This document shows positions 17,065 to 17,563 of a stretch of 22,914 nt of DNA, one piece after another (position 1 is the stretch's first letter; each line of letters begins with the position of its first letter). This stretch comes from a virus (lineage: Duplodnaviria > Heunggongvirae > Uroviricota > Caudoviricetes): positions 1 to 22,914 of the IMG/VR virus record IMGVR_UViG_2703718780_000024. One strand, written 5' to 3'. The translations under genes and the position numbers were made by a program. Below the pieces are notes generated by a model that saw only the letters and a list, made by a program, of their open reading frames with translations, made no database searches and had not been told where the DNA came from.

Positions 17065-17126
17065 AATTTACTCTCTATGTGTTTGGGAAAATAAATACCT
17101 TAAGTGCAAATTGTTGATTTTAAACG

Positions 17127-17140
17127 CTTCGCATGCGAAG
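17127..17140. promoter_or_regulatory. 14-bp perfect palindrome CTTCGCATGCGAAG upstream of the GHKL operon (candidate operator)
   Basis: Perfect dyad 63-76 bp upstream of the GHKL start codon, in the presumptive promoter region. Confidence 0.4.
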
Positions 17141-17238
17141 TCAACGATGTTAAGAAAGAAAGTGCATGTGATCTAACAGTATGTTTTTAAAAAAAGATTA
17201 GCTTTATGAGAATTCAGGACTGAATCCCGTGAGAGGAA

Positions 17239-17254
17239 AATAACATATGTTATT
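17239..17254. promoter_or_regulatory. 16-bp perfect palindrome AATAACATATGTTATT (candidate regulatory site)
   Basis: Perfect dyad inside the roughly 500-bp non-coding stretch between the island and the downstream prophage genes. Confidence 0.35.
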
Positions 17255-17563
17255 GTTGCATTGCTGTGTTGTTTGGGATTTGTTGCACCATTCTGGCGTT
17301 GGTATATCTAGTTCGTTGTTCATTTTGTTAATTGTACAACAGGCAGACAACAGAGAGCTTTTAGCCTAGTTAGCTTACGAAATTAAACAACTAAGATTAT
17401 CGGCGGGGAGTGGTCACCGCTACTCTTTGGCTAGGAGACTTCAACGCAACCGCACACAACCAGCTTCGGCGGGTTTTGTTTTTTCCTGGCATTCTGGTTT
17501 ACAATTTGCGTGCTAGCTTGAACAACTGGCATCTGCTGCACTGCGCCATCGAGAGATTGAGAA

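Follow-up and report, generated by a model that had tools for sequence, protein, structure and literature searches.

A probable recombination mosaic of promoter, orphan DNA and hok relic upstream of the MORC-like GHKL operon of prophage Sp10

The 499-bp interval that separates a GHKL ATPase gene from the next prophage gene (positions 17065-17563 of the window, which is the whole stretch of 22,914 nucleotides analysed) is, judging from its homologies, a recombination mosaic of a promoter, orphan DNA and a hok relic, rather than a single 500-bp leader. Within the interval, functional behaviour is confined to 17065-17162, which carries the predicted promoter of the operon encoding the GHKL ATPase and a PF20553 protein. 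The outer part probably includes one side of a scar in a hok/sok locus whose core was replaced by an incoming island. Two perfect palindromes lie in the interval, and most likely neither of them is a conserved operator. We regard this account, taken as a whole, as probable. A first-pass annotation had interpreted the interval as a long leader with operators; this interpretation was largely unsupported, and the palindromes themselves are real.

Modules of the interval and the mobile cassette

A 4.8-kb query around the interval matched prophage Sp10 of E. coli O157:H7 Sakai, and its counterpart in EDL933, with 100% identity. The window covers ECs_1953-1956 of Sakai Sp10, and Sakai coordinates are obtained by adding 1921561 to the window coordinates. 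The genes of this region are as follows.

13565-14716, plus strand: ECs_1953, C5 DNA methyltransferase (PF00145, 2.6e-61)
14684-15676, minus strand: ECs_1954, PF20553 'Methyltransf_35' protein ('putative O-methyltransferase')
15673-17064, minus strand: ECs_1955, MORC-like GHKL/HATPase_c_3 ATPase (PF13589, 2.9e-9)
17564-18163, plus strand: ECs_1956, DUF1367 protein (PF07105)

No gene is annotated between ECs_1955 and ECs_1956 in RefSeq or in the Sakai record, in agreement with the earlier statement that 17065-17563 contains no convincing ORF.

When the interval was compared with 5426 complete E. coli genomes by blastn, it broke into modules. Positions 17065-17440 (query 1-376) were present in only 173 E. 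coli genomes, in all cases with at least 99% identity and always together with the island. Positions 17441-17539 (query 377-475) were found in ca. 3000 E. coli genomes at 80-90% identity, and 17515-17563 (query 451-499) matched Rac-type prophages at 96-98% identity. The GC profile, which is at ca. 50%, drops to 30-40% exactly over 13325-17440. The modules and the cassette to which the innermost part belongs are listed below.

13513..17162, unstranded: conserved 3.65-kb mobile cassette with the C5 methyltransferase, PF20553 and GHKL genes and a promoter at each end
17145..17162, minus strand: outermost conserved part of the cassette; its transcribed strand is T-rich, and homology to other cassettes stops here
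17163..17440, unstranded: low-GC orphan DNA (ca. 35-41% GC) that came with the island and has only near-identical E. coli copies as homologues
17515..17563, plus strand: upstream module and ribosome-binding site of the DUF1367 gene, common to Rac-type prophages

The limits of the cassette were defined with eleven relatives, taken from a graded series of GHKL homologues, whose GHKL proteins show 66-87% identity. Their DNA was 68-80% identical to the cassette, and this identity was confined to the region from 13513 to ca. 17150-17162, with the alignment of one relative running to 17149. In pairwise blastn of the flanks upstream of the GHKL genes, homology spanned only -98 to -40 from the ATG. 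Since homology to other cassettes ends at ca. 17150-17162, only the innermost ca. 100 bp of the supposed leader belongs to the GHKL operon, and the notion of a leader of about 500 bp acting as one unit has to be given up. No relatives of 17163-17440 beyond the identical E. coli copies were detected by blastn in E. coli genomes, phages, plasmids or cassette-bearing viral contigs.

The relatives hold the same three genes elsewhere, in other lambdoid nin regions and in chromosomal islands. Among 91 related loci, the PF20553 gene follows the GHKL gene in 85, and the linkage between GHKL and methyltransferase genes is kept in ca. 85; in 54 loci the methyltransferase gene is upstream and co-oriented, and in 19 it is convergent. 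In most of the distant relatives the methyltransferase gene lies upstream in the same orientation, and the promoter region seen here does not exist there. A domain search showed that the gene content of the 4.1-kb island comprises PF00145, PF20553 and PF13589 only, and there is no regulator, transposase or integrase gene among these three. The conserved gene set of the 91 loci likewise includes no regulator or controller gene. The earlier remark that no controller gene is evident in the island was, thus, correct.

MORC/paraMORC GHKL ATPases occur in predicted restriction-modification operons (Iyer, Abhiman and Aravind 2008, PMC2292703). The present system resembles these in that a HATPase_c_3 GHKL protein is combined with a C5 methyltransferase in a mobile cassette of widespread but patchy occurrence, whereas the partner here is a PF20553 protein, which is neither an SF2 helicase nor a recognised nuclease. 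The GHKL operon fits the MORC/paraMORC restriction-modification theme, with an unusual partner protein. No PADLOC defence model matched the GHKL protein or the PF20553 protein. As in lambdoid morons and module junctions, a self-contained low-GC cassette with its own promoters stands amid early-region genes, and the homology breakpoints between the modules of different prophages are sharp. It differs from the usual moron junctions in that the GHKL operon opposes the phage early transcript and in that the insertion appears to have destroyed a resident toxin-antitoxin locus.

The hok/sok relic on both sides of the island

The DNA at 17441-17539 is 85-90% identical to the sequence that directly follows intact hokD genes in thousands of E. 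coli prophages. On the other side of the island, 13208-13312 is 88-91% identical to three intact hokD loci (their positions ca. 2577-2682), just upstream of mok/hokD. Direct comparison showed that the counterparts of 13208-13312 and 17441-17539 stand 318 bp apart in intact hokD loci. The match of the two relic ends to both sides of intact hokD, together with the drop in GC content, suggests that the island took the place of the hok core. Sp10 thus appears to have lost the core of a nin-region hok/sok locus to the 4.1-kb foreign island (13313-17440), which now stands in its place. The relic features are as follows.

13208..13312, plus strand: relic 5' end of a hok/sok locus, with the first ca. 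58 nt of the hok mRNA including the tac element
13221-13248, plus strand: relic hok promoter TTGCGG-16-TAGAAT, inside the 5' relic
17441..17539, plus strand: relic 3' end of a hok-family mRNA and conserved downstream DNA, by identity to the intact hokD flank
17440-17451, plus strand: fbi-like element of the hok 3' relic
17458-17475 (stem), with a T-tract to about 17485, plus strand: decayed intrinsic terminator of the hok 3' relic

Weak similarity of the 3' relic may reach back to about 17391. The terminator stem has an A·G mismatch as compared with the intact hokD locus, its local fold is weaker, and it was not called by a terminator scan. The tac-fbi duplex was calculated at -17.0 kcal/mol in the relic as against -24.7 kcal/mol in the intact locus, so that complementarity is kept in a weakened form. 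The core of the locus was not detected. The Rfam sok family (RF01794) gave no match in the window at the gathering threshold, nor any in 16950-17650 up to an E of 10, as compared to 112 bits for an intact control, and no ORF of the interval matched the Hok/Gef frame (PF01848, HOK_GEF), for which HokD of the intact locus scores 82.9 bits. We suppose that the mok/hok reading frames and Sok were swapped out, and that the two ends of the hok transcription unit survived as relics flanking the island.

Compared with known hok/sok loci (hokD/relF of Qin-like prophages and hokW-sokW of Sp5), the relic occupies the same position in the nin region and is homologous at both ends. Promoter, tac, fbi and terminator are all recognisable here, and the ends are 85-91% identical to those of intact hokD. 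Unlike these loci, it has lost the mok/hok frames and the Sok RNA and cannot act as a toxin-antitoxin pair. The interval is of interest as an indication that the island destroyed a hok/sok locus on arrival; its practical value is modest, and it opens no new question.

The GHKL promoter and the palindromes

A promoter scan gave TTGACT-16 bp-TAAAAT on the minus strand, which agrees with the sigma-70 consensus at 10 of 12 positions and was the sole match in 16800-17800. Ten enterobacterial upstream regions, eight of them distinct, whose proteins show 75-87% identity, were aligned with respect to this promoter; further relatives at ca. 45% identity were left out of the footprinting as too distant. 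The elements are given below.

17139..17144, minus strand: -35 hexamer TTGACT, from the promoter scan; TTGAC is invariant in the eight distinct alleles
17117..17122, minus strand: -10 hexamer TAAAAT, from the promoter scan; TA..AT followed by CA is invariant in the eight distinct alleles
17109..17111, minus strand: predicted transcription start, placed 6-8 nt past the -10 hexamer; the 5' UTR would then be ca. 47 nt long
17071..17075, minus strand: Shine-Dalgarno sequence GAGAG of the GHKL gene, whose ATG is at 17064-17062

The spacer length of 16 bp was constant in all eight distinct alleles while the spacer sequence varied, and a GAG[AG]G block 5-8 nt ahead of the ATG was kept in the aligned homologues. 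This phylogenetic footprint suggests that the GHKL-PF20553 operon has an ordinary sigma-70 promoter. The promoter, the short 5' UTR and the GAGAG site would drive the GHKL and PF20553 genes leftwards, against phage early transcription.

The operon is expressed in the lysogen according to published data. In a Sakai microarray, ECs1954 and ECs1955 changed together at a growth transition (-2.6 fold and -3.2 fold, respectively; PMC2241611), and ECs1954 is at rank 62 of the top-100 Hfq-crosslinked CDS (PMC4104026 Table S1A). The listing of Tree et al. contains no Hfq-bound sRNA in Sakai 1938626-1939124. Searches for known RNA families yielded only noise (Rfam gathering threshold; E of 10 or less over 16950-17650), and 17165-17495 showed no excess RNA structure on the two strands (z-scores of -0.24 and -0.61). 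A defined and evolutionarily supported promoter at 17117-17144 (Sakai ca. 1938678-1938705, minus strand) is available for work on the Sp10 island.

Two perfect palindromes had been described in this interval, and a check of the sequence found both where they had been placed.

17127..17140, unstranded: palindrome 1, CTTCGCATGCGAAG, perfect over 14 bp, 63-76 bp from the GHKL ATG (17064)
17239..17254, unstranded: palindrome 2, AATAACATATGTTATT, perfect over 16 bp, in the orphan DNA, 175-190 bp from the GHKL ATG

The 499-bp sequence was shuffled 5000 times with its dinucleotides preserved. Perfect palindromes of 14 bp or longer averaged 0.04 per shuffle; 3.9% of the shuffles had one or more, and 0.12% had two or more. 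The 22.9-kb window has four palindromes of at least 14 bp (1.7 expected) and three of at least 16 bp (0.42 expected). The pair is unlikely for a 500-bp stretch chosen beforehand, and becomes marginal (ca. 0.05) when the ca. 46 bins of this size in the window are taken into account. In sequence the two palindromes have no relation to each other, and they fold only into weak 6-bp hairpins without a T-tract.

Palindrome 1 covers the final two positions of the -35 hexamer and 12 of the 16 positions in the spacer. An overlap with the -35 hexamer and the spacer is the classical position of a repressor operator. The earlier placement of both palindromes in the promoter region holds for palindrome 1, which is inside the conserved predicted promoter, but not for palindrome 2, which is outside the conserved cassette. 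The first-pass annotation had proposed a check of the dyads upstream of homologous GHKL operons, and palindrome 1 turned out not to be conserved there. While all seven complementary pairs are present here, the seven other distinct alleles retain 4, 4, 4, 4, 2, 1 and 1 of the seven, and nine homologous upstream regions held no palindrome of at least 10 bp at the corresponding position. The outer CTT...AAG of palindrome 1 is kept in four of the seven relatives; an imperfect ancestral dyad at this place is conceivable, and shared ancestry would yield an equal pattern. The 173 E. coli copies of the DNA around palindrome 2 are all at least 99% identical, which leaves no diverged sequence for comparison.

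Within the window, at up to 3 mismatches, neither dyad recurred more often than expected by chance, the single match to palindrome 1 at this stringency being at chance level and 10 kb away. Exact scans of IMG/VR returned the same ten identical E. coli prophage copies for each palindrome, in addition to 61 unrelated matches for palindrome 1 and 54 unrelated chance matches for palindrome 2. To our knowledge, the dyads have no convincing match to the motifs of known E. coli regulators (Fur, LexA and GntR-type). We suggest that palindrome 1 is what happens to fill the freely evolving spacer of the promoter in the present allele, and that palindrome 2 may be just a part of the AT-rich orphan DNA imported with the island. 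Comparative support is needed before a perfect palindrome in imported AT-rich DNA is taken for an operator.

The suggestion that the dyads are controller boxes of a restriction-modification system was also not borne out. C-boxes of the C.PvuII, C.EcoRV and C.Esp1396I type are paired operator sites with GACT...AGTC half-sites. The present arrangement is similar to C-protein operators in that a dyad lies in the promoter of putative restriction genes in a methyltransferase-linked system, but there is no C gene, the small ORFs of the interval had no family match, the dyad is single rather than one of paired boxes, it has no GACT...AGTC half-sites, and it is not conserved in the homologous systems.

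It is unlikely, in our view, that palindrome 1 is a recent operator of this lineage, at which a dimeric repressor encoded elsewhere in the host or in a prophage throttles the GHKL-PF20553 operon. Such a reading would account for a perfect 14-bp dyad at the canonical position for repression, when any such palindrome is seen in just 3.9% of the shuffles, and it agrees with the growth-phase response of the operon in the lysogen and with the CTT/AAG partly common to relatives. However, the dyad is not conserved in the seven other alleles of the promoter, no related site exists in the 22.9-kb window including the immunity region, no regulator accompanies the cassette in the 91 loci, and the 14-mer does not recur as a motif among phages; besides, growth-phase dependence is possible without a dedicated repressor. 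A more elaborate proposal, which we consider quite unlikely, is that palindrome 1 is a new operator through which a repressor from outside the island, encoded by the host or another prophage, captured the MORC-like restriction operon, while the relic hok promoter is now directed towards the methyltransferase gene. If this were true, the operator and the relic hok promoter would together set up a newly wired order, methylation before restriction, after the landing in a toxin-antitoxin locus.

As regards palindrome 2, we also asked how well the orphan DNA around it would agree with the remnant of a delivery vehicle or of a recombination site, e.g. a mobile-element terminus able to form a hairpin. 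Low-GC DNA free of homologues adjoins the cassette on either side (ca. 13313-13512 and 17163-17440), the left flank also has short dyads (TAGTTAACTA and ATGTCGGTATCGACAT), and the cassette is found in many different contexts. This origin is nevertheless very unlikely, given that the two island flanks do not resemble each other significantly in either direct or inverted orientation, that the island has no transposase or integrase, and that no other copy of the cassette carries related flanks.

Promoter-methylation epigenetic switches have been reported for a few restriction-modification systems. That the palindromes hold the site of the island's own C5 methyltransferase/restriction system, so that promoter methylation feeds back on the restriction genes, is highly improbable: the dyads do contain 6-bp palindromic cores resembling type II targets (GCATGC and CATATG) and the methyltransferase gene is linked to the GHKL operon, but CATATG offers only one cytosine per strand, and the variable (target-recognition) region of the methyltransferase is strongly conserved in enterobacterial relatives whose promoters lack the dyad, which argues against a conserved self-methylation switch.

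Short reading frames in the interval

The first-pass annotation had pointed to a short ORF at 17246-17311 as either a leader peptide or a chance ORF. Its ATG is in fact at 17247; the TAG taken for its stop is not in frame, and the reading frame continues to 17369, encoding 40 amino acids.

17247..17369, plus strand: 40-codon ORF encoding MLLLHCCVVWDLLHHSGVGISSSLFILLIVQQADNRELLA, with the limits corrected from the earlier description

This ORF is on the plus strand and upstream of the promoter. Since the GHKL operon is on the minus strand, the ORF cannot encode its leader peptide. No family match was obtained in Pfam, NCBIfam or PHROGs, and neither a homologue nor a called identical protein was present among 5.8 billion proteins. 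The ORF is most likely a chance ORF. That it instead encodes a real small hydrophobic protein, either a toxin replacing Hok or a leader peptide acting with the old terminator on the DUF1367 gene, is extremely unlikely: an AGAGGA motif stands ca. 10 nt ahead of the ATG, the C-terminal half is hydrophobic and the ORF takes the place of hokD relative to the relic terminator, but no gene finder called it in the 5.8-billion-protein collection, it gave no Pfam, NCBIfam or PHROG match where HokD scores 83 bits, the promoter scan placed no promoter-like site on the plus strand, its strand is opposite to that of the GHKL operon, and a simple listing gives ten ORFs of at least 20 amino acids in this AT-rich stretch.

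The conservation over 17431-17586 is more simply accounted for by the 3' end of the hok mRNA than by an ORF antisense to it. This antisense ORF, which lies over the hok 3' relic (17431-17586, minus strand), matches phrog_2947, and some phage records name it 'mobile element protein'.

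Transcription of the cassette genes

Two promoters were found upstream of the methyltransferase gene.

13221-13248, relic hok promoter, TTGCGG-16-TAGAAT, within the relic 13208-13312
about 13526-13534, the methyltransferase gene's own extended -10 promoter, TGTTATAAT, at the cassette edge (13513-13565)

The relic hok promoter is still oriented into the island, with the methyltransferase gene located ca. 300 bp downstream. Since this promoter faces the island and the gene has an extended -10 promoter of its own, the methyltransferase gene may be transcribed from both. The methyltransferase and PF20553 genes are convergent, their 3' ends overlap by 33 bp (14684-14716), and a terminator is absent between them. 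This layout invites transcriptional interference during induction, and a phage early transcript would run antisense to the entire length of the GHKL-PF20553 operon.

Related cassettes and the hok relic

The upstream flanks of the related cassettes L086 and L087/L088, which lie in other lambdoid prophages, each carry at about 3190-3215 perfect LexA-box-like sequences (CTGT-N8-ACAG, e.g. CACTGTATATATAAACAG), with the GHKL gene ca. 300 bp further downstream. The sequence in L086 adjoins a gene encoding a LexA DNA-binding domain. These LexA-box-like sequences probably belong with the adjacent phage gene, and the Sp10 allele has no counterpart to them. Another related cassette, L092 from Serratia marcescens, encodes a second, larger HATPase_c_3 protein of 608 amino acids (6172-7998) between the PF20553 and methyltransferase genes and is a cassette variant with four genes.

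An ORF with a PHROG match lies antisense to the hok 3' relic.

17431-17586, minus strand, 51-codon ORF, phrog_2947 match (E 1.3e-14)

Several records, from phages and from RefSeq, list this ORF as a 'hypothetical protein' or a 'mobile element protein', and it probably represents a spurious ORF family arising from the conserved 3' end of hok mRNA. At L004, a prophage locus with an intact hokD, the hokD 3' UTR (2958-3039) matched IsrK, an sRNA of a Salmonella prophage, with 27 bits (E 8.6e-4), a score below the gathering threshold of 50. No such match was found in the hok relic of the window.

Palindromes and RNA genes elsewhere in the window

Perfect palindromes of at least 16 bp numbered three in the window, as compared to 0.42 expected from shuffles. 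Two of these are additional to the pair upstream of the GHKL gene.

19803-19820, perfect palindrome of 18 bp, ACCAATTTTAAAATTGGT
1505-1520, perfect palindrome of 16 bp, TGATTATTAATAATCA

The following RNA genes were located by Rfam, except for AgvB1, whose position was converted from the Sakai coordinates in Table S2 of Tree et al. 2014.

20166-20338, plus strand, STnc100 (105 bits)
about 20222-20274, minus strand, anti-sRNA AgvB1 (EcOnc01a)
1557-1735, plus strand, RalA antitoxin RNA (225 bits)
6135-6186, minus strand, DicF sRNA (77 bits)
19144-19216 and 19320-19393, plus strand, two tRNA genes (tRNA-Ile and tRNA-Arg in the Sakai annotation)

By these converted coordinates, AgvB1 falls inside the STnc100 stretch on the opposite strand. 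RalA, DicF and both tRNA genes are features already known for prophage Sp10.
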